Sequence record: NC_079184.1
DNA: 53,998 nucleotides
Origin: Escherichia phage vB_EcoM_DE15
Direction: 5' to 3' (one strand)
Below are positions 33,395-44,229 of the stretch, piece after piece. Within the stretch, counting starts at the first letter, position 1; each line of letters starts with the position of its first letter. A program made the translations under genes and the position numbers. The notes under the pieces were generated by a model. That model did not search any database. It was given only the letters and a program-made list of their open reading frames with translations, and was not told where the DNA came from.

Positions 33395-33969
33395 CGCCAC
33401 CTCCAGCTCCTGCGGTGTCTGCTGTAGCAGGGACTGTAACTGCGGACGCATCTGCATCTGATGCCACTGTAACTGTAGACAAACTGTTTACGTTTGAGAA
33501 CTCTACAGCAACAGATTACAACTTCGCCGTTACTCCTGCTGTAGCTGGTGTTTCTGTGGCGGCAAACGGCACTGTGACTGTACTAAGTGCAACGACTACA
33601 GCCACTTCTGCGACAATCAAGGCAACGAATAAAACAGAGCCTGGTGTAACTGCATCTAAAGTGATTACGATTAAGCCTAAACCTCCTGCACCTACGGTGT
33701 CTGCTGTAGCTGGAGTTGTAACGGCTGATGCGTCTTCTACTGATGCCACTGTAACTGTAGACAAACTGTTCAAGTTTGGTAACTCTGCAGCAACAGACTA
33801 CACCTACGCTATTACGCCTCCTGTGATTGGCGTTTCTGTGGCTGCAAACGGTACTGTAACCGTCTTGAATGAGACAACTACCGATACCTCTGCCACGGTT
33901 AAGGCAACAAACAAAACAACCTCCAGCGTGACTGCAACTAAAGAAATTGCTATTACGCCGAAGTCTTAA
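32921..33969 (+). CDS. Frameshift-extended decoration protein with two Ig-like repeats (~349 aa)
   Basis: A -1 shift at 33382-33388 joins the 156 codons to AVTPPPAPAVSAVAG... The track's GTG start at 33415 has no RBS. Confidence 0.55.
33382..33388 (+). promoter_or_regulatory. -1 programmed frameshift slippery heptamer C_CCA_AAG
   Basis: X_XXY_YYZ in the zero frame, 4 nt before the stop. The -1 frame is open from 33376 to 33969. Confidence 0.6.
33400..33966 (+). repeat. Tandem 282-nt (94-aa) coding duplication, Ig-like domains
   Basis: Units at 33400-33681 and 33682-33966. Both start PPAP.VSAVAG.VTADAS..DATVTVDKLF. Confidence 0.85.
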
Positions 33970-33977
33970 GTTGTGAT

Positions 33978-33998
33978 GGCGCAATTAATAGTTGCGCC
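33978..33998 (+). terminator. Hairpin GGCGCAA-TTAATAG-TTGCGCC
   Basis: Perfect 7-bp stem with no T-run. Possible processing or attenuation site before the capsid gene. Confidence 0.35.
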
Positions 33999-34024
33999 TC
34001 ACCAAACAAAACGGATTAATTTAC

Positions 34025-35032
34025 ATGCCTAAGATGATTAAACTGGCGGACGGTTCTGAATTCGAACTGAACGACGCTATCACCCGTATTCAGGATTCTG
34101 GCACTGTTGTCCTGAATGACGACGATGCAGTATTCTTTCAACGCCAGCTTGAGTACATTGAAGCTCAAACTTACGACACTCTGTATCCAGAACTGGAAGC
34201 TCGTGCTGCTTTCGGTGTGGACACTACTGGTGGTGCTGGCGTAAACACTCTGACCTACCGTTCTTACAACCATGTTGGTAAAGCTCAGGTAATTAACGCC
34301 CGTGCAACCGACCTGCCTAAATCCAGCATTTCTGGTAAAGAATACAGTATCCCTGTTAAATCTGTTGGTACTGCATTCGACTACGATATTGATGAAGTGG
34401 CATCCGCTGCTGTTACTGGCCTCCCGCTGGAAACTCGTAAAGCAAATGCTGCTATTCGTGGTTACGAACAGTATGTTAACTCTGCTGCATGGTACGGCGA
34501 TAAAGCTAACGGCTTTGTTGGCTTCTTCGAAAACCCAGACATTACCAAAGCAACTGTTGCTCAGGGTGCTGGCGGTTCTACCAAGTGGGCCGAAAAGACC
34601 CCGACCGAAGTTATTGCTGACCTGACTGCTGCTGTGTCTGCAATGTATGCTTCTACTCTGAAAATCATGCGCCCGGACGAAATCTGGATGCCTGTCGAGC
34701 ATGAGCAGTACATCTTCAACACTGCACGTTCTGAGCAGTCTGACAAGACGATTGGTCAATTCTTCATTGACAACAACCAGTTCATCAACTCCCGCGATAA
34801 AATCAAGGGTCTGAACGCAATCAAAGGCCATGGCGATTCTGGTTCTGATTGCTTCGTCGTTGTTTGCCGCAATGCAATGGGCAACCGTACTTTCCGTCTG
34901 CGTGAGCCTCTGCCGCTGACCTGGCAACCAGTACAGCTTCATGGCCTGGTTTATGAAGTTCCTGGCCGTGGTCGTTTCGCTGGCTTCCAAGCGATGTATC
35001 CGGCAGCAATCTCCATCAACTCCGGCATCTGA
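34025..35032 (+). CDS. Major capsid protein (335 aa)
   Basis: Strongest codon bias in the window. Position after the scaffold and decoration genes. ATG at 34025, in frame with track ORF 33992-35032. Confidence 0.75.
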   Translation: MPKMIKLADGSEFELNDAITRIQDSGTVVLNDDDAVFFQRQLEYIEAQTYDTLYPELEARAAFGVDTTGGAGVNTLTYRSYNHVGKAQVINARATDLPKSSISGKEYSIPVKSVGTAFDYDIDEVASAAVTGLPLETRKANAAIRGYEQYVNSAAWYGDKANGFVGFFENPDITKATVAQGAGGSTKWAEKTPTEVIADLTAAVSAMYASTLKIMRPDEIWMPVEHEQYIFNTARSEQSDKTIGQFFIDNNQFINSRDKIKGLNAIKGHGDSGSDCFVVVCRNAMGNRTFRLREPLPLTWQPVQLHGLVYEVPGRGRFAGFQAMYPAAISINSGI

Positions 35033-36777: not shown

Positions 36778-38226
36778 ATGGCAATTCCAATTTCCGACAT
36801 CATCCAGGTCAACATTGCGGTAAGTCCTAACGCTGTTGCCGTGGAAGGTTTTGGTCCTCTTCTGTTTCTGAGCAAGGAGTTTACTCCAGCCCCAGGCGAA
36901 GCTGTTCCTGTTCGTCAGTATACCAGCATGGCTGCTGTATCTGCTGATTTCCCATCTGGTGAAATTTATCAAGCTGCTCTGGCATGGTATTCTCAGAAAC
37001 CAACTCCAAAGTATTTCCTCGTAGGTGCTATCACCCATGAAGATGTTACTCTGGCAACTCCTGGTACTGTAACCGCATCTTCTGCTGCGACTCTGGAAAC
37101 CATTACTGCGTTAACTAATGGTGTTCTGTCCATTAATATTAACGGCGTTGATAAGTCTACTGCACCAATCAATTTCTCGTCCGCAGACGATTTTGCTGCT
37201 GCTGCATCAATGCTTAATGCTGCATTTGTTGCTGCCGATATTCCTGCAACTGTTACGCAGACCACAGGCACTTTCAAAATCACTACCAACGAAACTGGCG
37301 TAAATTCCATCATTGGTAACGTGTACGGTTCTGCTGCTGCGGCATTTAAACTTGATTCTGCTTCAAGCCCTGTGCATGTTCAAGGTACTGATGAAGTATC
37401 TATCGGCACCGACTTGAATGCAATCTTGAACTCTACGTTCGACTTCTTCTTTGTTGCTATTGACCGCAAATATCGTGGCAGTGCTGATGGTAATAACCAG
37501 ATGACTGTTGCCAAATGGGCAGAAGCAAACGGCAAAGTATTTGGTTGGGCTGATAGCGACCCGCAGATTCTGGTTCCTGGTGCTGAGTCTAGCTTTAAGC
37601 GTGCCAAAGAGCAGAACCTCCAACGCACTCTGTTGGTGTATGATGCGTCTGATAATGGCGACGAGTATCCAGAAGTTTCTATCCTGGGCCGTGCATCGAC
37701 TGTTAACTTCAACGTTGCAAACTCTTCGCTCGTTCTGGCATTTAAACAAGGTCCAGCTATCAAGACTGCTGACTTGTCCCCGAACCAGCTTGCTGCACTT
37801 GAGCGTGTGAATGGTAACGCATTCATCAACGTCGGCGGGAACACTATGTTCTACAACGGCAAGATGGCTGACGGTACTTGGTTCGATACCGTGCAGGGTG
37901 TTTCTTGGTTAACCTCCAAGATTCGTGCTAACGTGTTCAACCTGTTCTACACCTCCACTACCAAGATTCCTTGGACGGACACTGGTGTTGCTCTGGTGAA
38001 CCAGCAAGTAACCCTGGCTCTGGAACTGGCAGTGACCAATGGTCTGATTGCTCCAGGTTACGACAATGAAGGCAACTTCTATCCAGATGGCTACAAAGTC
38101 TTGGCTACCGACTTGGCTCTGATGCAATCTCAGAAAGGTGCTCGTATCTGGGAAGGCACTTCCTTCATTGCAATTGGCTCTGGCGCATTGCAGGGTGCAG
38201 TTATCTCTGGCAACTTCGTTCAGTAA
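36778..38226 (+). CDS. Contractile tail sheath protein (482 aa)
   Basis: Size, codon bias, and the order sheath-tube-chaperone-tape measure. Confidence 0.7.
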   Translation: MAIPISDIIQVNIAVSPNAVAVEGFGPLLFLSKEFTPAPGEAVPVRQYTSMAAVSADFPSGEIYQAALAWYSQKPTPKYFLVGAITHEDVTLATPGTVTASSAATLETITALTNGVLSININGVDKSTAPINFSSADDFAAAASMLNAAFVAADIPATVTQTTGTFKITTNETGVNSIIGNVYGSAAAAFKLDSASSPVHVQGTDEVSIGTDLNAILNSTFDFFFVAIDRKYRGSADGNNQMTVAKWAEANGKVFGWADSDPQILVPGAESSFKRAKEQNLQRTLLVYDASDNGDEYPEVSILGRASTVNFNVANSSLVLAFKQGPAIKTADLSPNQLAALERVNGNAFINVGGNTMFYNGKMADGTWFDTVQGVSWLTSKIRANVFNLFYTSTTKIPWTDTGVALVNQQVTLALELAVTNGLIAPGYDNEGNFYPDGYKVLATDLALMQSQKGARIWEGTSFIAIGSGALQGAVISGNFVQ

Positions 38227-38236
38227 GGTGCGATAA

Positions 38237-38692
38237 GTGAAACAATATTCTTTCTATAATACCGACCTCATTATCGACGGTGCTCGTGTAGATGGTTTTA
38301 CCTCTGGTAATTCCATCATCACTGCTCGTCGTAACGCACCTCAACACCTGCCTGTTATTGACGCGTATGGTAAGTTGGCTGTAGCTACTACGGCTGACTT
38401 ATCTGGTACTATTACTTTCCCGCTTCTGCAAACCGCAGACTGGAACGAAATCTTGTACAGCCGTGCTCAGTTAACTCAGGCAACTGGTCTGTCTGGCAAC
38501 AAATCTCTGTGGCAACCGCTCCAGATTCAGATTGTTGACAAGATGGGTGATGTGCTGGTCAATGGTGTAAACGGCGCTATCTTGCAGCAACCTGCAATTC
38601 AGCGTGGTGTGTCCTTCACGTCTAACGTGTGGTCTATCTTTGTAGAGCGCCTCCAGATTAAGACTGGTTCTTATCCGGAAATTGGCGTTTAA
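38237..38692 (+). CDS. Tail tube protein (151 aa)
   Basis: Size and position. GTG start with RBS AAGGTG. Confidence 0.65.
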   Translation: MKQYSFYNTDLIIDGARVDGFTSGNSIITARRNAPQHLPVIDAYGKLAVATTADLSGTITFPLLQTADWNEILYSRAQLTQATGLSGNKSLWQPLQIQIVDKMGDVLVNGVNGAILQQPAIQRGVSFTSNVWSIFVERLQIKTGSYPEIGV

Positions 38693-38703: not shown

Positions 38704-39162
38704 ATGGCTTGTGAATTGCTTCAACGTGAATTCACAAACTCCAAAGGCGAAACAGTGTTAGTCGTTGTTCGACAATTGTCGGCTTCGGCTGCACTGTCTC
38801 TTCACGCGGAGTTGGTAAGCAAGTTAGGCTCACGAGTATTCCCATTCATCGAAGGTAAATATAACTTCGCTGATATTATATACTTGATGCAGCAAGTAGA
38901 GCATACCGTATTCACAGAATTGTTTAAGCGTGTTATCAGCATGCACTCGTCCATAGATGGACAAGAAATCAAACCTGCATTATATGATATGCAGTTCAAT
39001 GGCGAATTGATGTTGTCTTGCCATGTCTTTGCTTTCGTGCTCGAAGCAAACTTCCTTGATTTTTTCAAGCAAGGGCTCGAAATCAACGAACAGAGACGAT
39101 TGGAGGCGGAGGAAGCATCCAAGCTGGCAGAGCAGAAGAATTCGAGTCCGGAGACAGTTTAG
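38704..39162 (+). CDS. Tail assembly chaperone, zero-frame product (152 aa)
   Basis: Position before the tape measure gene. Contains a slippery site. Confidence 0.65.
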   Translation: MACELLQREFTNSKGETVLVVVRQLSASAALSLHAELVSKLGSRVFPFIEGKYNFADIIYLMQQVEHTVFTELFKRVISMHSSIDGQEIKPALYDMQFNGELMLSCHVFAFVLEANFLDFFKQGLEINEQRRLEAEEASKLAEQKNSSPETV

Positions 39163-39338
39163 TATCCCTGTTCCCCGACATAAAATATTTTCTGCATCGT
39201 CCTATAATCGAAGATAGTTCTCTCTGCAAGTTACGTGAATTGCAAGATGGAACCTATTCGATTATGGACTTATTGCTATTCCACGACATTCTCGATTTGC
39301 GTAAGAAACTCGAACCAGTAGATGAAGACAATGGCTAA
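38704..39338 (+). CDS. Frameshift-extended tail assembly chaperone (~211 aa)
   Basis: The -1 frame encodes ...FPDIKYFLHRPIIEDSSLCKLRELQDGTYSIMDLLLFHDILDLRKKLEPVDEDNG, with no start codon of its own before 39263. Confidence 0.55.
39060..39066 (+). promoter_or_regulatory. -1 programmed frameshift slippery heptamer T_TTT_TTC
   Basis: In-frame X_XXY_YYZ. The -1 frame opens exactly at 39060 (TGA at 39057-39059) and runs to 39338. Confidence 0.6.
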
Positions 39339-42300
39339 TCAAAAAGATTTAATGAAGTTGAGCGTTAATGAGTTAATTGCATTAGGCTCTCAAAGCGGTC
39401 TGACTTTCCATGCTGGTATGAAGAAGTCGCACATGGTTCAACAACTTAGTGCGAGCGCTGCTTCGGGATGGCTGGATACAAATGCAGAATTAATGGGTGG
39501 GTCGTTCGAAGATGACAGTTTGATTACTGAATCTTTGGGTGACTCTTCCATGATTTCAGACGCTGCCCACATTGCACAAGTGCTTTCAAGTGCTGGCTAC
39601 ACAGAAGCATTTCATGCAGCAATGAATGGCCCATCACACCATGTAGAAGCTGTTCACGCATACATGGAAAGGCTTGGCGTTAGCACAGATGATGTGTGGA
39701 TGCACATGCCAAAGCCAAATCCGAACCTACCGCAAGGTAGCTTCAACATGCTTAATGCCTATATGCGAGATACTTTGCAAGGGCATCAAGATATTATGCC
39801 GGAAATCCCAGGCCATTATGCTGGGGATATTATGGCTGAATACTCCACCAACCGTGGAAACATTGCTGACTCCTACAACTACATGGCCCACATGTATGTT
39901 GACCGTGAGCAATATAGCAATCATGAACAATACGCAAGAGACATTAGTCGAGTTGCCAAACGTCTGGAACGAGAGTTACCCTCAGCCTTTAAGGAAGTTG
40001 GGTATACATCCGCATCTAATGTAGGAAATAAATCGGCCCCACATATTTCTTACATGGATGCACTCCCTCAGATTGGTTCTCCTTCGATTGTTTCTGGCAT
40101 TGCACATCCTCGTGCACCTCTTAACGCATCTGGACTTCCTCTTGGTTCTTATGGTTCTGGCATAAATCCAGAATACTCCCTCACTGCCTCGCTAACTGGT
40201 GGCACTGGTTGGAGTGAACCAAGCAAGGCTTTATATTCCTCTATTAGCGAAGCTGTTAAATCTGCTGCCAAAGTTTATTCTGGTTCCAAAGGGATGATGA
40301 ATACTCGTCACGAAGTATCTGACCGTGACATGATTATGGACAGTGCAACTCGCTACACAGATTTGGAAGAAGCCAGAAGCGGATACGAAAACCTTCGTTC
40401 TGAACTTGCAGATGAACCAGCTTATTCTGCATCAAGTGTTCGAGCTATTCTCGAAAACACTTACGATAGAATGGATGCCGAACCTGTTCGCATTCCAAAG
40501 ATGAAGGGAGCTTCACAGCGAGTCGATAAAGATTCACTGTCAACATCTACAGATTTTACAGCACAACTTGGAGAGGCCACCAATTGGAACTCTGCAAGAA
40601 TGCGTCGTGAGGAACTTGCGATTGCAAATATGGATAGTGCTGGATTCCGTGATGTATCAGACTATGGTACAGGACGTTCCGAGTCCCCCGTCCGATTCCA
40701 TGACTTAGAACAGGGCAGCCAAGAGTGGCTGGACTTCCGTAAAAATTATGACATAACTGGCTCAACTGTTGGAACTTTCTTAGGAAACAACCCATACACC
40801 CGACCTTGGGCTGGTATGATTGATAAGATTGGCTTATCTCGTAGTAAAGAGCACAGCGATTTCACCAAAAAGATGTTCGCTGATGGTCACAGGACGGAAG
40901 AAGAAGCACGCGCTCGTGTTGGTAAGGAATTTGGATTCGATATCAAACAAATTGGCGCTATAACAAATGACAACTATCCCGCCTTCATGTATTCTCCTGA
41001 TGGTCTTATTGGGGATGATGCCATTTGGGAGCACAAGAATCCGCAAAGGGCTGGTAAGTTTGCTGACCTTCTTAAAGGCGACCATCCAGACTACATGGAC
41101 CAAATTCAATTTGGTATGCACGTTTCTGGCCGTTCTCGTGCTTTGTTCTCACAAACCATCAACGACGAAACACGTTCGCAGTGGATTGAGAAGGACGAAG
41201 GATGGTACGAAAGAAACCGAAATCGCCTTGATTCTGTGCTTGGCCGTCTTGATGCTGGGCGAGAGTTTGTTAGAAACAATGCTGGATTAGAACGAGAAGA
41301 GCTGATTGCTGGTGCAAGAAGTGCAATGACTGGTGATGGAATCTGGAAAGATATTCGTCAAAGGTCTACTCGTGGCTATTCTGCTGCTGCTGGTACTCCA
41401 GAAGACCCGTTTATTGGTTCACGTTCTTCGTACAATCCAGAAGCATCCTACTCTGACTACAAGCCAAACTTTGTAATGCACGAGCAAAACTTTCCGGCAA
41501 CTACTGGAAATGGTGACACCGGAAATGACTCGATGGCATTGTCTGTTAAGAAAGGTATTCTTGCTGCTCAGGAAGAAAACAGGCAGAAAGGTATTGGTGC
41601 AGATGCAGACTTTGATGGCAAAGCCGATTCAATGGGCTGGAACCGTGAAAGATTTGATGCTGCCAATGGCGGTGGATATTCTGGCGGTGGTGGTGGTCGT
41701 GGCGGCAACTTCACAAGTGGTGGCAACTACTATGATGACTACGGTCGCATGGGTGGTTCGTTAGCTGCTGGCATTGCTGGTGGCAGTATTGGTTCAGCAA
41801 CCAACGGAGTTATGCAAGCATTGATGGCAACTCCTGCTGGACGTATGGCTGCTGTAGGCATTGGTGCTATTCAGATTGGCAATGAAGCTGCTGAATACAT
41901 GAATGACTTTATCGGCAACTCGCTTGATGCTGGTGTGATAAATCCTAATGAATATTCTTCCATGTCGCAAGGCTTGGAGATGTTAGGACTCAACTCACAA
42001 CAAGCGGCACGTCTGAATCAAACCACACATAGTGCCTATAACACCATGCTTAACGGCGACCCCAGCGCCGCTGTGAACATCGTTCGCGGCAGTAGGGGAT
42101 TGCTCACCATAGGTGATATTCGTGCGACAGGCGGCGACCCTGTGGCCCTGGCTCGCATCATGCAGGAAAGGGGCAAGGAGCGTGGCTGGAGTCAGGCCCG
42201 TATCGCAGGTGCTGCCGAAATGGCTGGCCTACAGGGTATGGCGCGAGCATACGACCGCACGGAATACAGCCATGAGCAAGCTGGCTCGGTGGTAGAAGCG

Positions 42301-43047
42301 GGTAGAAACTCCGACTTTGCCGAAGGTATGGCCCAATCGGAAATGTTGCAGGGAAGCCGCGCACGGATGCTGCCGAGCTACAACGTGCCACAAAGTGTCC
42401 TATCTAATGGCGCTTCTGTATTTGAGGCTGGCAGTGATGCACTTGACAGTGTACGCACTGGATTCAACAGGACACGAGAGTTTGCTGGAAGTGTTTACGA
42501 CTTTATTGCTCAGGAAGAATCTGGCGGTCGTGAATACAACAAAGATGGTTCTCGTGTAACAAGTCCAACTGGCGCTCGTGGGATAATGCAGATTCTCCCT
42601 TCGACTGCCCGTGACCCAGGATTTGGAATCAGGCCGTCTGATGGAACTCCAGAAGATGATGCACGAGTTGGTCGTGAATACTATGACGCAATGTACAAGC
42701 GTTATGGCGACCACGAGAAAGCAATGGCTGCTTACACCGATGGTCCTGGCACTGTTGACAAAGCTGTTGATAAGAATGGGTTGGATTGGCTTACTGCTGT
42801 TCCTGCACAGGCACAGAATCGCGTCAAAGCATTCCGTGAATGGTCCAAGTCTTCTCAATCTTTGGAAGAAGGTGCTACAGGGTTTACTCGTAATGGAATG
42901 TCATACGGTCAAACCCAAACTGTTGTTAATGTTAAGATTGATGCTAAGGTCAACAACCAGACTGCTTCTGCTACAGTTGCAATTCCTGGTGGTCAGACTG
43001 TGACTCAACAAATGAACATGAACAACGGTGCGCAACAAAGACGTTAA
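39322..43047 (+). CDS. Tape measure / ejected multidomain protein (1241 aa)
   Basis: Follows the chaperone pair. It has an N-terminal HeH/SAP-like motif, an internal YqaJ-like nuclease domain, a Gly-rich hydrophobic segment, and a C-terminal SLT domain (EESGGREYN...GIMQILPSTA). Confidence 0.75.
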   Translation: MKTMANQKDLMKLSVNELIALGSQSGLTFHAGMKKSHMVQQLSASAASGWLDTNAELMGGSFEDDSLITESLGDSSMISDAAHIAQVLSSAGYTEAFHAAMNGPSHHVEAVHAYMERLGVSTDDVWMHMPKPNPNLPQGSFNMLNAYMRDTLQGHQDIMPEIPGHYAGDIMAEYSTNRGNIADSYNYMAHMYVDREQYSNHEQYARDISRVAKRLERELPSAFKEVGYTSASNVGNKSAPHISYMDALPQIGSPSIVSGIAHPRAPLNASGLPLGSYGSGINPEYSLTASLTGGTGWSEPSKALYSSISEAVKSAAKVYSGSKGMMNTRHEVSDRDMIMDSATRYTDLEEARSGYENLRSELADEPAYSASSVRAILENTYDRMDAEPVRIPKMKGASQRVDKDSLSTSTDFTAQLGEATNWNSARMRREELAIANMDSAGFRDVSDYGTGRSESPVRFHDLEQGSQEWLDFRKNYDITGSTVGTFLGNNPYTRPWAGMIDKIGLSRSKEHSDFTKKMFADGHRTEEEARARVGKEFGFDIKQIGAITNDNYPAFMYSPDGLIGDDAIWEHKNPQRAGKFADLLKGDHPDYMDQIQFGMHVSGRSRALFSQTINDETRSQWIEKDEGWYERNRNRLDSVLGRLDAGREFVRNNAGLEREELIAGARSAMTGDGIWKDIRQRSTRGYSAAAGTPEDPFIGSRSSYNPEASYSDYKPNFVMHEQNFPATTGNGDTGNDSMALSVKKGILAAQEENRQKGIGADADFDGKADSMGWNRERFDAANGGGYSGGGGGRGGNFTSGGNYYDDYGRMGGSLAAGIAGGSIGSATNGVMQALMATPAGRMAAVGIGAIQIGNEAAEYMNDFIGNSLDAGVINPNEYSSMSQGLEMLGLNSQQAARLNQTTHSAYNTMLNGDPSAAVNIVRGSRGLLTIGDIRATGGDPVALARIMQERGKERGWSQARIAGAAEMAGLQGMARAYDRTEYSHEQAGSVVEAGRNSDFAEGMAQSEMLQGSRARMLPSYNVPQSVLSNGASVFEAGSDALDSVRTGFNRTREFAGSVYDFIAQEESGGREYNKDGSRVTSPTGARGIMQILPSTARDPGFGIRPSDGTPEDDARVGREYYDAMYKRYGDHEKAMAAYTDGPGTVDKAVDKNGLDWLTAVPAQAQNRVKAFREWSKSSQSLEEGATGFTRNGMSYGQTQTVVNVKIDAKVNNQTASATVAIPGGQTVTQQMNMNNGAQQRR

Positions 43048-43119: not shown

Positions 43120-44229
43120 ATGCCGTGGCTACGCAGAGTTGAGGTAATAGTTTCACGTAAAGAAGACCCAAGCATTCGAACAATATTTAAATCACATCGT
43201 ATTGATTTTGAAGTTCGTTCTACTGTTGGGTGGCCCGCCGATACAGCAAACATAACTCTGTTTAACTTGTCATTAGAAGAAGTTAAGTTCCTCCAGGACA
43301 AGACCTACGGAGATATGTATATTGAAATTCGTGCAGGGTATGCAGAAGATGAACGTTCGGACTCTGGTGGTGGAACCTCTAGTGGCGGTGTTAAGAAGTT
43401 TGGTCAAAAGGCCGAACAGAGCGACCGCGTAACAGTGTCCACATCACTACCAACCATCTTCTCTGGAATTATTACAAACGCAGTTGGCTACAGAAAGCCT
43501 CCTGAACATGTAACACAATTGTTTTGTATTTCCAAGGCATATGGTGCATCCACTGATTTCAAACAGTTGACTGCAATCAAGCCTGGAACCAAGCTCATTG
43601 ATGCAATGCGCTCAATGTGTTCTGACTATGGATTCAATACCATCTCCACATTTGGTGTTGAAGATTCGGTCCTTGAAACAGTGATGCCTCGTGGGCGTGT
43701 GTTTCATGACACATTCTTAAACGAATTTCGTAACATGCTTGGCGAGTATAACTTGCTATACACTGTTACAACTGGTGAAGTGCAAATCTTCCCAGACACC
43801 TTTGGTGATAAAGATGCAGTAAACAGAATGTCCAAAGACAGAGAGCCAGTTAAGCTGGATGCCAACTCAGTCATTGGAAACCCTGTTGCTGGAATCTGCA
43901 CCTACACTTTAAACACATTCCTAAACCCATCTTTCCAACCAGGGATGATTCTTGATGTATCTCCTTTGCTTGGAGACAAGCTACTTGCCAATGGTGTGAC
44001 CTCTGTTTCAGGGGAAGGTATTGTACTCAATACAGACCAGTCCGTATTCCGGTGGGCTGTTGAAGACAAATACTTTATCATGGAAGTTGTGCATAAAGGT
44101 TCGACTCACACAACCACTTATCAAACATCAATCACTGCAATATTGGGTGGCAATACAATGATGGGTGGTAAGGAAGCTGCGTGGCAGGAAATGTATGCTA
44201 ACAGTGGAATGGCAATGGAGTCATTTTAA
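43120..44229 (+). CDS. Baseplate hub / DNA-circulation-like protein (Mu gp43-like by position), 369 aa
   Basis: Synteny with Mu/P2-type baseplate modules. Confidence 0.55.
   Translation: MPWLRRVEVIVSRKEDPSIRTIFKSHRIDFEVRSTVGWPADTANITLFNLSLEEVKFLQDKTYGDMYIEIRAGYAEDERSDSGGGTSSGGVKKFGQKAEQSDRVTVSTSLPTIFSGIITNAVGYRKPPEHVTQLFCISKAYGASTDFKQLTAIKPGTKLIDAMRSMCSDYGFNTISTFGVEDSVLETVMPRGRVFHDTFLNEFRNMLGEYNLLYTVTTGEVQIFPDTFGDKDAVNRMSKDREPVKLDANSVIGNPVAGICTYTLNTFLNPSFQPGMILDVSPLLGDKLLANGVTSVSGEGIVLNTDQSVFRWAVEDKYFIMEVVHKGSTHTTTYQTSITAILGGNTMMGGKEAAWQEMYANSGMAMESF

Follow-up and report, generated by a model that had tools for sequence, protein, structure and literature searches.

A YqaJ/lambda-exonuclease-type nuclease domain in the predicted tail tape-measure protein of a Chaseviridae phage, and its possible role at DNA ends

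Introduction

What would a recombination-type exonuclease do inside the protein that measures the length of a phage tail? The question is raised by a 1241-aa protein of Escherichia phage vB_EcoM_DE15 (NC_079184.1), in which a sequence-only reading placed a YqaJ/lambda-exonuclease-type PD-(D/E)XK domain that would be delivered with the ejected DNA. The window, i.e., the whole stretch of 53,998 nucleotides analyzed here, is a Carltongylesvirus genome (Chaseviridae; phiEcoM-GJ1-like coliphage). Genomes of this family are reported to be linear and non-permuted, with terminal repeats of ~3 kb, of which one copy only lies within the window. The family has a T7-like RNA polymerase and replication genes, and the genome encodes a separate T7 gp6-like 5'-3' exonuclease and an endonuclease.

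Gene position and assignment as tape measure

The tail genes follow the order terminator, sheath, tube, -1 frameshift chaperone, ORF 39322-43047 and gpD-like hub (Table 1). The -1 ORF of the chaperone is opened by a canonical slippery heptamer, T-TTT-TTC, at 39060-39066. Such a chaperone frameshift directly upstream is a hallmark of tape-measure genes, as Xu and colleagues are said to have described in 2004. In the records of relatives, a small ORF is annotated in the gap between the chaperone and the tape-measure gene, and the hub downstream of ORF 39322-43047 has matching annotations. The ORF lies directly 3' of the frameshifting chaperone and 5' of the baseplate hub, and it is the sole ORF of the tail module with a length sufficient for a tape measure. 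From gene position and domain content, its product is assigned as the tape measure of a myophage of the Chaseviridae; the gene order and the frameshifting chaperone immediately upstream support the tape-measure position recognized in the sequence-only reading.

No Pfam tape-measure family matches the whole protein or parts of it at E <= 1, and the PHROG of the ORF carries the label "virion structural protein" only. The missing curated match counts weakly, given the well-known diversity of tape measures. At 0.15 nm per residue, the full 1241 aa would correspond to 186 nm, and the ~925 aa that remain without the ~316 aa of enzyme domains to ~139 nm. Tails of the family are reported to be 110-130 nm, or 116-166 nm uncontracted, and the predicted ruler length is compatible with them only when the enzyme domains are left out of the ruler.

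In most of the ~80 genome records in GenBank the gene is labeled "tail fiber", and other records have "probable T4 gp5 analog" or "tail tube initiator"; one record already names the product "putative endonuclease". The first three labels were dropped, since gene position and domain content disagree with them. The gene has also been read as a host-range determinant (PMC8762354).

Domain architecture

By sequence comparison the polypeptide is made of four parts: aa 1-454, the nuclease (aa ~455-655), a Gly-rich/hydrophobic segment with a core (aa ~783-1050), and an SLT domain (aa 1061-1152). Pfam has no matches in aa 1-450 and aa 650-1050, and both stretches are confined to the same 79 phage records. 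The N-terminus had been read as a HeH/SAP-like DNA-binding motif. A single-sequence AF2 model does contain two helices (helix 15-24, linker, helix 35-47; pLDDT 72-85), but aa 1-60 have no match in Pfam at E <= 1 and aa 1-55 none in the PDB by phmmer at E <= 10, so that the helix pair stands as a candidate and its assignment to the HeH/SAP class is tentative. The model of aa 1-460 from which it comes has a mean pLDDT of 36.6 and was used for the two-helix hint only.

The Gly-rich hydrophobic region was borne out by composition and hydropathy, and it has many invariant Gly residues. The core that follows is the only part that BLASTP can align with a sister-subfamily tape measure, and its aa 909-973 are 39% identical to the protein of Vibrio phage VPs20. 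The C-terminal lytic transglycosylase was likewise recovered, as SLT domain PF01464 (E 1e-12, 48.1 bits with a cut-off of 21.3), in which the signature E-S ... GxMQ is present (...AQEESGG...GARGIMQILPSTA). The same region is matched by PHROGs of endolysins and lytic tail proteins.

Table 1. Positions, in the window, of the tail genes around ORF 39322-43047 and of the predicted modules and active-site motifs of its product.
Feature	Position (nt)	Strand	Basis or remark
Sheath gene	36778-38226		5' of tube gene
Tube gene	38237-38692		between sheath and chaperone
Tail assembly chaperone, frame-0 product, 152 aa	38704..39162	+	phrog_11820 "tail assembly chaperone", E 2.5e-75
Chaperone -1 frame extension, 92-codon ORF	39060..39338	+	ends within start of tape-measure gene
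Tape-measure-position multi-domain virion protein, 1241 aa	39322..43047	+	phrog_19855 "virion structural protein", full-length match
N-terminal helix-linker-helix, aa ~5-48, candidate HeH/Rho_N-like motif	39334..39465	+	weak; single-sequence AF2
N-terminal region, aa ~49-454, clade-specific	39466..40683	+	without Pfam match
YqaJ/lambda-exonuclease-type PD-(D/E)XK nuclease domain, aa ~455-655	40684..41286	+	profile, PDB sequence, fold
R473, invariant Arg of W..R....TGS motif	40738..40740	+	invariant in 42 sequences (domain R37) and 12 orthologues
E526, motif I acidic residue, GH[RK]xE..A	40897..40899	+	invariant
D560, catalytic Asp of SPDG, motif II	40999..41001	+	invariant; aligned to LHK-Exo SPDG
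E570-H-K572, E-x-K catalytic motif III	41029..41037	+	invariant; aligned to LHK-Exo EIK
Y591-M-D-Q594-I-Q596, YxxQxQ motif IV	41092..41109	+	Q594 invariant in 42 sequences
Gly-rich then hydrophobic Gly/Ala segment, aa ~783-860, candidate membrane-inserting part	41668..41901	+	composition, hydropathy
Most conserved non-enzymatic core, aa ~861-1000	41902..42321	+	
SLT lytic transglycosylase domain, aa 1061-1152	42502..42777	+	PF01464
Baseplate hub, P2 gpD/T4 gp27-like	43120..44229	+	phrog_196 "baseplate hub", E 5e-52; downstream neighbor

Identity and conservation of the nuclease domain

Profile, fold and motif evidence agree on the YqaJ/lambda-exonuclease PD-(D/E)XK identity of the domain. Pfam family YqaJ (PF09588) matches with E 2.3e-13 and 51.1 bits (cut-off 22) over profile positions 1-149 of 150, its envelope covering aa 468-604 (nt 40723-41133), and the isolated nuclease segment reaches 54.6 bits. 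RecE-like exonuclease families of PHROG match the domain as well (E 1.8e-18 and 6.7e-15), and a sequence search of the PDB finds LHK-Exo (3syy, E 5e-8) with SPDG, ExK and YxxQxQ aligned. The AlphaFold (AF2) monomer model of the domain has a pLDDT of 85.1 and a pTM of 0.81. The best PDB matches of Foldseek to this predicted model are 3sm4, 3slp, 1avq and 3syy (probability 1.0), with E 7e-10 to 2e-8 and TM 0.62-0.79 between the predicted structure and lambda exonuclease or LHK-Exo. Profile and Foldseek comparisons thus back the YqaJ fold far beyond chance. The peptides from which the domain had been recognized occur as written, i.e., EQGSQEWLDFRKNYDITGS at aa 463-481, YSPDGLIGDDAIWEHKNP at aa 557-574 and YMDQIQFGMHVSG at aa 591-603, and the interval then proposed, 40690-41250 (aa 457-643), falls within the domain as delimited here.

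The catalytic D...E-x-K, on which that proposal was partly based, is intact, D560, E570 and K572 being invariant across the relatives examined. All of 12 cultured orthologues (46-99% identity) have the segments GH.xE, YSPDGLIGDD, WEHK.P and Y.DQ.Q.GM unchanged, and the same active-site residues are invariant in comparison with 41 stand-alone YqaJ proteins. The active-site motifs are also intact in 6 uncultivated relatives and present in 21 of the 22 long (at least 840 aa) representatives from a library of 1.84 billion proteins. Orthologues were drawn from a phage collection and from this exhaustive library; a word-indexed protein search with the domain gives stand-alone YqaJ proteins of 181-290 aa only, the tape-measure family being absent from that index. 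The invariant R473 is presumably the counterpart of Arg28 of lambda exonuclease, which binds the 5'-phosphate.

The nuclease domain has a dN/dS of 0.06-0.12 and the lowest dN of all regions in the comparisons with 4HA13 and PYps4T, and is under strong purifying selection. As judged from sequence and predicted structure, the tape measure almost certainly holds a real nuclease domain of the active type.

Distribution of the fusion

The fusion of nuclease and tape measure is, from sequence comparison, a family-wide and ancient trait that extends beyond this one phage. The nuclease is present in every complete IMG/VR relative, and a search of the phage collection, IMG/VR and the sister subfamily for relatives without it, by which the fusion could be dated, found none. 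In the sister subfamily, ORFs in the tape-measure position match YqaJ at 19.6-25.2 bits (Vibrio VPs20, Shewanella Spp001, Aeromonas pAh6-C) and keep the D, ExK and Q motifs, the rest being unalignable, and the corresponding protein of Aeromonas phage pAh6.2TG has a fold-level match to the nuclease domain. In the distant metagenomic members P0053 and P0060, the gene lies between chaperone and baseplate genes with the same upstream order, and several small unassigned ORFs precede the baseplate genes downstream.

Among otherwise near-identical phages, the nuclease-containing segment is swapped as a cassette, with two alleles, the window type and the GJ1/MLP1 type, that are ~50-60% identical. One related YqaJ protein, of metagenomic origin, carries a fused T7 gp5.9 RecBCD-inhibitor domain, a fusion which hints at a link between YqaJ-type nucleases and RecBCD evasion.

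Presence in the virion

In phage 4HA13, the orthologue (64% identical) was found in CsCl-purified virions with 64-67% coverage, a whole-protein figure that is not placed on aa 455-655, and was second by peptide ion intensity in the purified particles (PMC9699118). The same preparation also held non-structural proteins, including SSB (PMC9699118). Coverage this high is out of reach for the C-terminal half alone. Virion proteomics, from which coverage of the domain had been expected, makes the orthologue a high-coverage component of the virion, but the coverage is not specific to the nuclease. The nuclease probably travels in the virion and enters the cell at infection. The literature searched on tape measures with YqaJ, nuclease or exonuclease domains and on Chaseviridae tape measures contains nothing on this domain, and no paper was found there that describes a nuclease domain in any tape measure.

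A possible role at the genome ends

Upon tail contraction, the tape measure would exit the tube with its C-terminus first. The SLT domain would then cleave peptidoglycan, the hydrophobic segment would engage the inner membrane, and the N-terminal half with the nuclease would come out last, beside that end of the linear and terminally redundant genome which enters first. The nuclease would act as a Mg2+-dependent 5'->3' exonuclease on linear dsDNA ends, for which the phage's own genome ends would be the most likely substrate. Their resection would leave 3' single-stranded tails, by which RecBCD loading would be blocked and/or the ~3-kb terminal repeats could anneal.

Different parts of this proposal deserve different degrees of belief. 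For the combination of an active nuclease, delivery by the tape measure and action on DNA ends, the evidence from sequence and modeling tips the balance slightly in favor. The phage's own genome ends as the substrate are a plausible choice that falls short of probable; by analogy, own-end processing would fit an end-dependent 5'->3' enzymology better than an attack on the circular host chromosome. More doubtful still is the general form of the proposal, in which the tape measure of Chaseviridae and related myophages would deliver a genome-establishment exonuclease; the domain would lie against the leading DNA end in the tail and pass into the cytoplasm together with it, the end being resected 5'->3', the genome made RecBCD-resistant, and the repeats pairing.

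The tail-tube lumen is ~4 nm wide, presumably too narrow for three or more folded copies of a ~22-kDa domain; the domain would therefore be stored unfolded or placed outside the tube. The C-terminus-distal orientation is borrowed from lambda, T5 and 80alpha. For both repeats to anneal, the enzyme would have to persist, because only the leading genome end would be near the tape measure. The T7 gp6-like 5'-3' exonuclease that the phage already owns counts against the proposed role.

A classical two-component role of the Red/RecET type is unlikely, since no annealase gene (Red-beta/RecT/Erf/Sak) was found among the scanned early and middle ORFs, where several ORFs lack an assigned function, and none is present in the annotation of the relative 4HA13. 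In Red/RecET-type systems the annealase gene is usually adjacent, whereas the neighbors of the nuclease gene are tail genes.

Alternative roles

Instead of acting on the phage's own ends, a delivered nuclease could be an offensive or counter-defense weapon against foreign linear or nicked DNA, for example co-infecting phage genomes, linear plasmids, DNA of defense systems, or host DNA after breaks. This role is unlikely. It draws on the same evidence for an intact, virion-borne nuclease and agrees with the concept of polyvalent proteins, in which effector enzymes are delivered with the invading DNA (PMC5512222). The cassette exchange of the nuclease segment, a pattern often seen in conflict genes, would suit it too, but the dN/dS of 0.06-0.12 speaks for conservation, and not diversification, of the active site and most of the domain, and such a weapon would need to leave intact the linear genome of its own phage, which follows directly behind it. 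Moreover, enzymes of the lambda exonuclease family need a DNA end, which an intact circular chromosome does not offer. Tape measures are present in about 3-6 copies per virion, and a weapon delivered in ~3-6 copies only would be a scarce one.

It is rather improbable that the domain serves mainly as a DNA-end clamp, which grips the leading genome end and tows the DNA into the cell, with catalysis secondary or absent. Lambda exonuclease and LHK-Exo are toroidal trimers that thread DNA (1avq), tape measures of other phages are trimeric, R473 presumably matches the Arg that binds the 5'-phosphate, and the domain lies in the presumed head-proximal half, all of which a clamp would accommodate. Pure binding, however, would not require D560, E570, K572, E526 and Q594 to be invariant over very deep divergence, as they are.

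The nuclease might also work in the producing cell, in late recombination, concatemer processing or host-DNA recycling, and then be passively carried or removed. The gene belongs to the late structural genes and is highly expressed, and no other enzyme of the lambda-exonuclease type is encoded, both in keeping with such work. The role is nevertheless very improbable: the T7 gp6-like 5'-3' exonuclease and the endonuclease already cover such jobs, no annealase partner was found among the scanned ORFs, and the fusion is kept in both subfamilies and in the same relative position in distant members. A cytoplasmic role is unlikely to hold the fusion, because a cytoplasmic enzyme has no reason to stay fused.

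Hardly credible is the reading of the ORF as a tail fiber or a T4 gp5-like puncturing lysozyme in which the YqaJ match is incidental or a degenerate relic, as the three discarded GenBank labels would favor, given that the ORF sits right after the frameshifting chaperone and before the hub, is without match to fiber or gp5 OB-fold/beta-helix families in Pfam and PHROG, and has strongly constrained nuclease motifs, distinct fiber genes being located further downstream.

Comparison with known systems

The nuclease domain shares its predicted fold and the motifs W..R..TGS, G...E..A, SPDG, E-x-K and YxxQxQ with lambda exonuclease (Red-alpha) and Laribacter LHK-Exo, and is therefore expected to be a Mg2+-dependent, 5'-phosphate-guided 5'->3' exonuclease on dsDNA ends. 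Those enzymes are free-standing cytoplasmic proteins of ~200-290 aa that pair with an annealase (Red-beta, RecT, Erf), whereas the domain described here is embedded in a 1241-aa virion protein (aa 455-655) and no annealase is detectable in this genome.

Tape measures with cell-wall enzymes include that of mycobacteriophage TM4, with an Rpf-like motif, and pb2 of T5, with a peptidase. Like the protein described here, muralytic tape measures are rulers with an entry enzyme, encoded in the slot after the frameshifting chaperone; here the muralytic domain is C-terminal. They act on peptidoglycan, whereas the extra module here would target DNA and lies in the presumed head-proximal half. Tape measures bearing enzymes are thus already known, and the DNA-acting module is the new element. 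T7 gp16, an internal core protein of a podovirus, is likewise ejected, forms a channel and has an N-terminal lytic transglycosylase domain of SLT type, but it lacks a nuclease domain and does not serve as a tape measure.

Polyvalent proteins are large and multidomain, and their co-delivery with the invading DNA has been proposed, lysozyme-type and DNA-acting enzymes aiding establishment (Iyer et al. 2017; PMC5512222). Tape measures, YqaJ and lambda exonuclease are unmentioned in that work (PMC5512222). Polyvalent proteins are typically packaged in the head, often with a releasing protease, whereas Pfam finds no such protease in this tape measure.

Correct annotation of the gene matters because Chaseviridae are in development for biocontrol of E. 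coli, Erwinia, Pectobacterium and Yersinia. Novelty is limited, in that a routine Pfam scan finds the nuclease domain and one record already has "putative endonuclease". If the proposed role is true, a nuclease function would be assigned to a tape measure for the first time, and tape measures, otherwise rulers and channel-formers, would also take an active part in handling the DNA that enters. D560, E570 and K572 would then be a mutable handle on a poorly understood step, the fate of the first DNA end within seconds of ejection.

T4 gp2 and Mu N are injected end-binding proteins which guard the incoming linear genome from RecBCD. The role favored here would, by analogy, be directed at the same target, the ends of the incoming genome, and against the same host enzyme. 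T4 gp2 and Mu N are without nuclease chemistry and act outside the tape measure, whereas the nuclease here is part of it. If its proposed role is true, it would bear on RecBCD evasion by phages without Gam or gp5.9, and would be a catalytic equivalent, carried in the virion, of T4 gp2 or Mu N.

Identity and fold of the nuclease domain

The 1241-aa product of ORF 39322-43047 contains, letter for letter, the three peptides quoted in the sequence-only reading, which had proposed a YqaJ / lambda-exonuclease-type nuclease here. A YqaJ-type nuclease domain in this protein is real, far beyond chance. Pfam YqaJ is complete at aa 468-604 (E 2.3e-13, profile positions 1-149 of 150), scoring 51.1 bits where the gathering score is 22. 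In PHROGs, phrog_19855 ("virion structural protein") matches the protein over its full length, and RecE-like recombination exonuclease families match aa 454-647 (E 1.8e-18 and 6.7e-15). A PDB sequence search found LHK-Exo, the alkaline exonuclease of Laribacter (3syy, E 5e-8), with SPDGLIGDDAIWEHKNP aligned over SPDGLVGDTGLIEIKCP and PDYMDQIQFGMHVSGR over PEYIKQMQTQMACTGR, and gave a weak match to lambda exonuclease. The AlphaFold2 model of aa 437-673, built from an alignment with 41 stand-alone homologues, is confident (pLDDT 85.1, pTM 0.81). Foldseek, proposed earlier as a check, recovered with this model the expected fold, the best solved structures being lambda exonuclease (3sm4, 3slp, 1avq, 6m9k) and LHK-Exo (E 7e-10 to 2e-8, probability 1.0, target-normalised TM up to 0.79). 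By every test open to sequence and predicted structure, the domain belongs to the YqaJ/lambda-exonuclease family.

Eleven orthologues (46-86% identity) were extracted and aligned with the window protein. Invariant in all are QG..EW...R....TGS, GH..E, YSPDGLIGDD, WEHK.P, and Y.DQ.Q.GM; the key positions R473, E526, D560, E570, K572, and Q594 stay unchanged across the 41 aligned stand-alone YqaJ proteins as well, so the D...E.K residues noted earlier are intact. In per-region Nei-Gojobori estimates, the nuclease segment has dN/dS 0.06-0.12 and, compared with phages 4HA13 and PYps4T, the lowest dN within the protein (0.13-0.16 vs 0.22-0.42 elsewhere). The least conserved, gap-prone parts (aa ~361-400 and ~641-720) flank the domain, which fits a discrete folded module between linkers. 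These alignments show a predicted lambda-exonuclease-type active site kept intact for very long inside a protein of the tape-measure slot.

Assignment as tape measure

The window's large ORFs lie on the + strand throughout and encode, among others, a T7-like RNA polymerase, primase-helicase, family A DNA polymerase, 5'-3' (FEN-type) exonuclease, and ligase. In the queried gene, the window is up to 97.6% identical in nucleotides to the phiEcoM-GJ1-like coliphages vB_EcoM_SA91KD, flopper, and ST32 (genus Carltongylesvirus, subfamily Cleopatravirinae, family Chaseviridae). PP952070.1 (hits H21 and H195), entered as "Staphylococcus phage Pel53" from the host Staphylococcus hyicus, has a tape-measure gene of ~90% nucleotide identity to that of the coliphage, and its host assignment looks doubtful. 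A tandem duplication at window 33399-33962 (282-nt, 94-codon unit, copies 77% identical) occupies nearly all of the 184-aa ORF 33415-33969, directly upstream of ORF 33992-35032, the major capsid gene position in relatives.

Genes for tail completion, sheath, tube, and tail assembly chaperone precede ORF 39322-43047, and a baseplate hub gene of P2 gpD / T4 gp27 type follows it. The chaperone gene has a predicted programmed -1 frameshift site: the heptamer is perfect and stands exactly at the opening of the -1 frame, whose ORF overlaps the start of the 1241-aa ORF. Among long-tailed phages, a frameshifted chaperone pair is conserved directly ahead of the tape-measure gene. In relatives, the 3' part of the frameshifted chaperone is annotated as a separate small "hypothetical protein".

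Features upstream of the tape-measure ORF
Feature	Position	Strand	Basis
Tail assembly chaperone gene	38704-39162	+	profile match, gene order
-1 frameshift site and 92-codon -1 ORF	39060-39338	+	slippery heptamer T-TTT-TTC at 39060-39066

No other ORF of the tail module is long enough for a tape measure. The Gly-rich and hydrophobic stretch (aa ~783-860) and the C-terminal lytic transglycosylase (Pfam SLT, aa 1061-1152, E 1e-12), both recognized in the sequence-only reading, are usual tape-measure accessories. With 0.15 nm allowed per residue, the full protein would span 186 nm and the ~925 residues outside both enzyme domains ~139 nm; tails of the family measure 110-130 nm (PMC8472413) or 116-166 nm (ICTV profile). 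The window protein has no curated tape-measure profile match, which counts against the assignment. ORF 39322-43047 is accepted as the tape measure; gene order, the frameshifted chaperone, and ORF length uphold the position proposed earlier. Most records use the labels "tail fiber", "T4 gp5 analog", or "tail tube initiator", which are rejected in its favour. The gene is a "putative endonuclease" in GenBank record SKA49, and in a Yersinia phage paper the orthologue figures as "large main tail fiber protein" in the host-range discussion (PMC8762354).

The virion proteomics called for earlier exists for an orthologue, the "tail tape measure protein" of 4HA13 (64% identical to the window protein). 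In CsCl-purified particles analyzed by LC-MS/MS, this 128-kDa protein ranked second by peptide ion intensity, with 64-67% coverage (PMC9699118). Such coverage is beyond the reach of the C-terminal half alone, so the N-terminal half was in the preparation. An orthologue of the nuclease-bearing protein is thus present in purified virions, in a preparation that also contained some non-structural proteins.

Spread and age of the fusion

Full-length matches occur in 78 phage-collection records, and the N-terminal 450 aa and the aa 650-1050 region are present in exactly the same 79 records; no cultured relative among them lacks the nuclease. A conserved-core scan of viral contigs gave six complete uncultivated relatives (1223-1252 aa), all with QG(S/T).EW and SPDGLIGDDA(I/L)WEHK. 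In the sister subfamily Nefertitivirinae, reached via tail sheath, tape-measure-position ORFs match YqaJ at 19.6 (Vibrio phage VPs20), 23.1 (Shewanella phage Spp001), and 25.2 bits (Aeromonas phage pAh6-C) and retain W..R.GK.T, G..LE..A, T(P/L)DA, VEVK, and Y.Q.Q(H/Y)QM. Between the two subfamilies' tape measures, only aa 909-973 can be aligned by BLASTP. The predicted structure of the 925-aa protein of Aeromonas phage pAh6.2TG matches the nuclease-domain model. The ORFs of Spp001 (genes 11 and 10, L031 10927-14387) and pAh6-C (gp10 and gp11, L032 4608-7741) are annotated as two genes each; the coding sequence simply shifts to another frame at the junction, which lies within or shortly after the nuclease domain, and the probable cause of the splits is a sequencing frameshift or a recoding event missed in annotation.

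An exhaustive HMMER search, run against 1.84 billion representative proteins, turned up 1161 sequences related to the domain. The top 150 include 22 proteins of 840-1534 aa that have the domain in their interior; 11 of these are close family clusters, and D...ExK followed by YxxQxQ is retained in all but one of the 22. A second tier, at 33-41% identity, has the domain again near residue 430-650 of ~1200 aa, with strong Pfam YqaJ matches (34-76 bits) and often a C-terminal SLT. The genes for two distant metagenomic members, P0053 and P0060, are preceded by terminator, sheath, tube, and Phage_TAC_15 chaperone genes and followed by baseplate genes. Since the fusion extends across both subfamilies and to distant metagenomic members, it did not arise as a recent accident: Chaseviridae and related myophages have an ancient and stable design in which the tape measure carries a nuclease. 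In the genome carrying P0053, a 348-aa RelA_SpoT gene (alarmone synthetase-like, PF04607; L033 17583-18629) lies inside the baseplate block, flanked by the sheath-initiator gene and by a gene whose N-terminus matches a Pfam domain (PF18352).

Comparison with loci L002 and L005 shows the tape-measure gene to be mosaic at window 39780-41430 (aa ~154-703). Measured against the window protein, that of phiEcoM-GJ1 has 92-100% identity at aa 4-150 and 704-1003, 60-95% in the remaining C-terminal windows, and only 30-72% at aa 154-703, where its identity to phage MLP1 is 86-100%. This pattern indicates that two nuclease-containing cassettes are in circulation in phages that are nearly identical elsewhere; the cassettes are ~50-60% identical and share their catalytic motifs. 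The ST32 paper gives 99-100% identity for neighbouring genes and 76% for the tape-measure ORF.

Proposed function

Exonucleases of the YqaJ/lambda-exonuclease family start from a DNA end, digest 5'->3', and are guided by a 5' phosphate. They would find a poor target in an intact circular chromosome and an ideal one in a linear genome end. The tape-measure C-terminus lies at the tail tip in phages where orientation is established, in agreement with the C-terminal SLT domain of the window protein; by analogy, the N-terminal half with the nuclease would be head-proximal, adjoin the leading DNA end, and exit the tube last. Chaseviridae genomes are linear and non-permuted, with ~3-kb direct terminal repeats (ICTV profile). 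In the favoured interpretation, the nuclease engages and resects the incoming genome end, which would leave RecBCD without a blunt end and/or free the terminal repeats to anneal.

No annealase was detectable in the scanned window ORFs or the 4HA13 annotation, which makes a classical Red/RecET role in recombination unlikely, and the window system does not qualify as a two-component recombinase. No Gam-like or gp5.9-like RecBCD inhibitor was recognized among the window ORFs scanned, and several ORFs of 240-300 aa carry no functional assignment. An anti-restriction protein (phrog_14321) and a small SSB are among the products of the early region (window 11485-12042 and 8433-8810). P0066, a metagenomic stand-alone YqaJ relative of 577 aa, has a C-terminal T7 gp5.9 RecBCD-inhibitor domain (PF25708, 66.8 bits). 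An exonuclease physically joined to RecBCD inhibition is interesting in its own right, and the fusion is a small independent hint linking YqaJ nucleases with RecBCD evasion.

A weapon delivered against foreign DNA would share the virion location and is the strongest rival, though unlikely; the intact host chromosome would suit it poorly. The main physical objection touches all delivery models: a folded 22-kDa domain in several copies should not fit the tube lumen, so that storage must be unfolded or outside the tube. A mostly non-catalytic DNA-end clamp, for which the presumed head-proximal position would serve, is less probable still, given the invariant D560, E570, and K572. Action only in the producing cell is very improbable, as the phage already has a separate 5'-3' exonuclease and the fusion to the tape measure is kept in both subfamilies. 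That the ORF is a tail fiber or T4 gp5-like lysozyme, as most records have it, with the YqaJ match as a relic, is hardly credible next to the low dN of the segment and the gene order.

Comparison with known systems

In the literature searched, tape measures are nowhere described as bearing a nuclease domain, and no paper comments on this one in Chaseviridae. A nuclease-bearing tape measure is unexpected, deeply conserved, and directly testable; its novelty is tempered, as a routine domain scan reveals the nuclease and the function is predicted. Polyvalent proteins are multi-enzyme proteins proposed to enter with the invading DNA, described without mention of tape measures, YqaJ, or lambda exonuclease (Iyer et al., PMC5512222). 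The window tape measure resembles those with cell-wall hydrolases in carrying enzyme cargo, but differs in that the cargo is a DNA enzyme.
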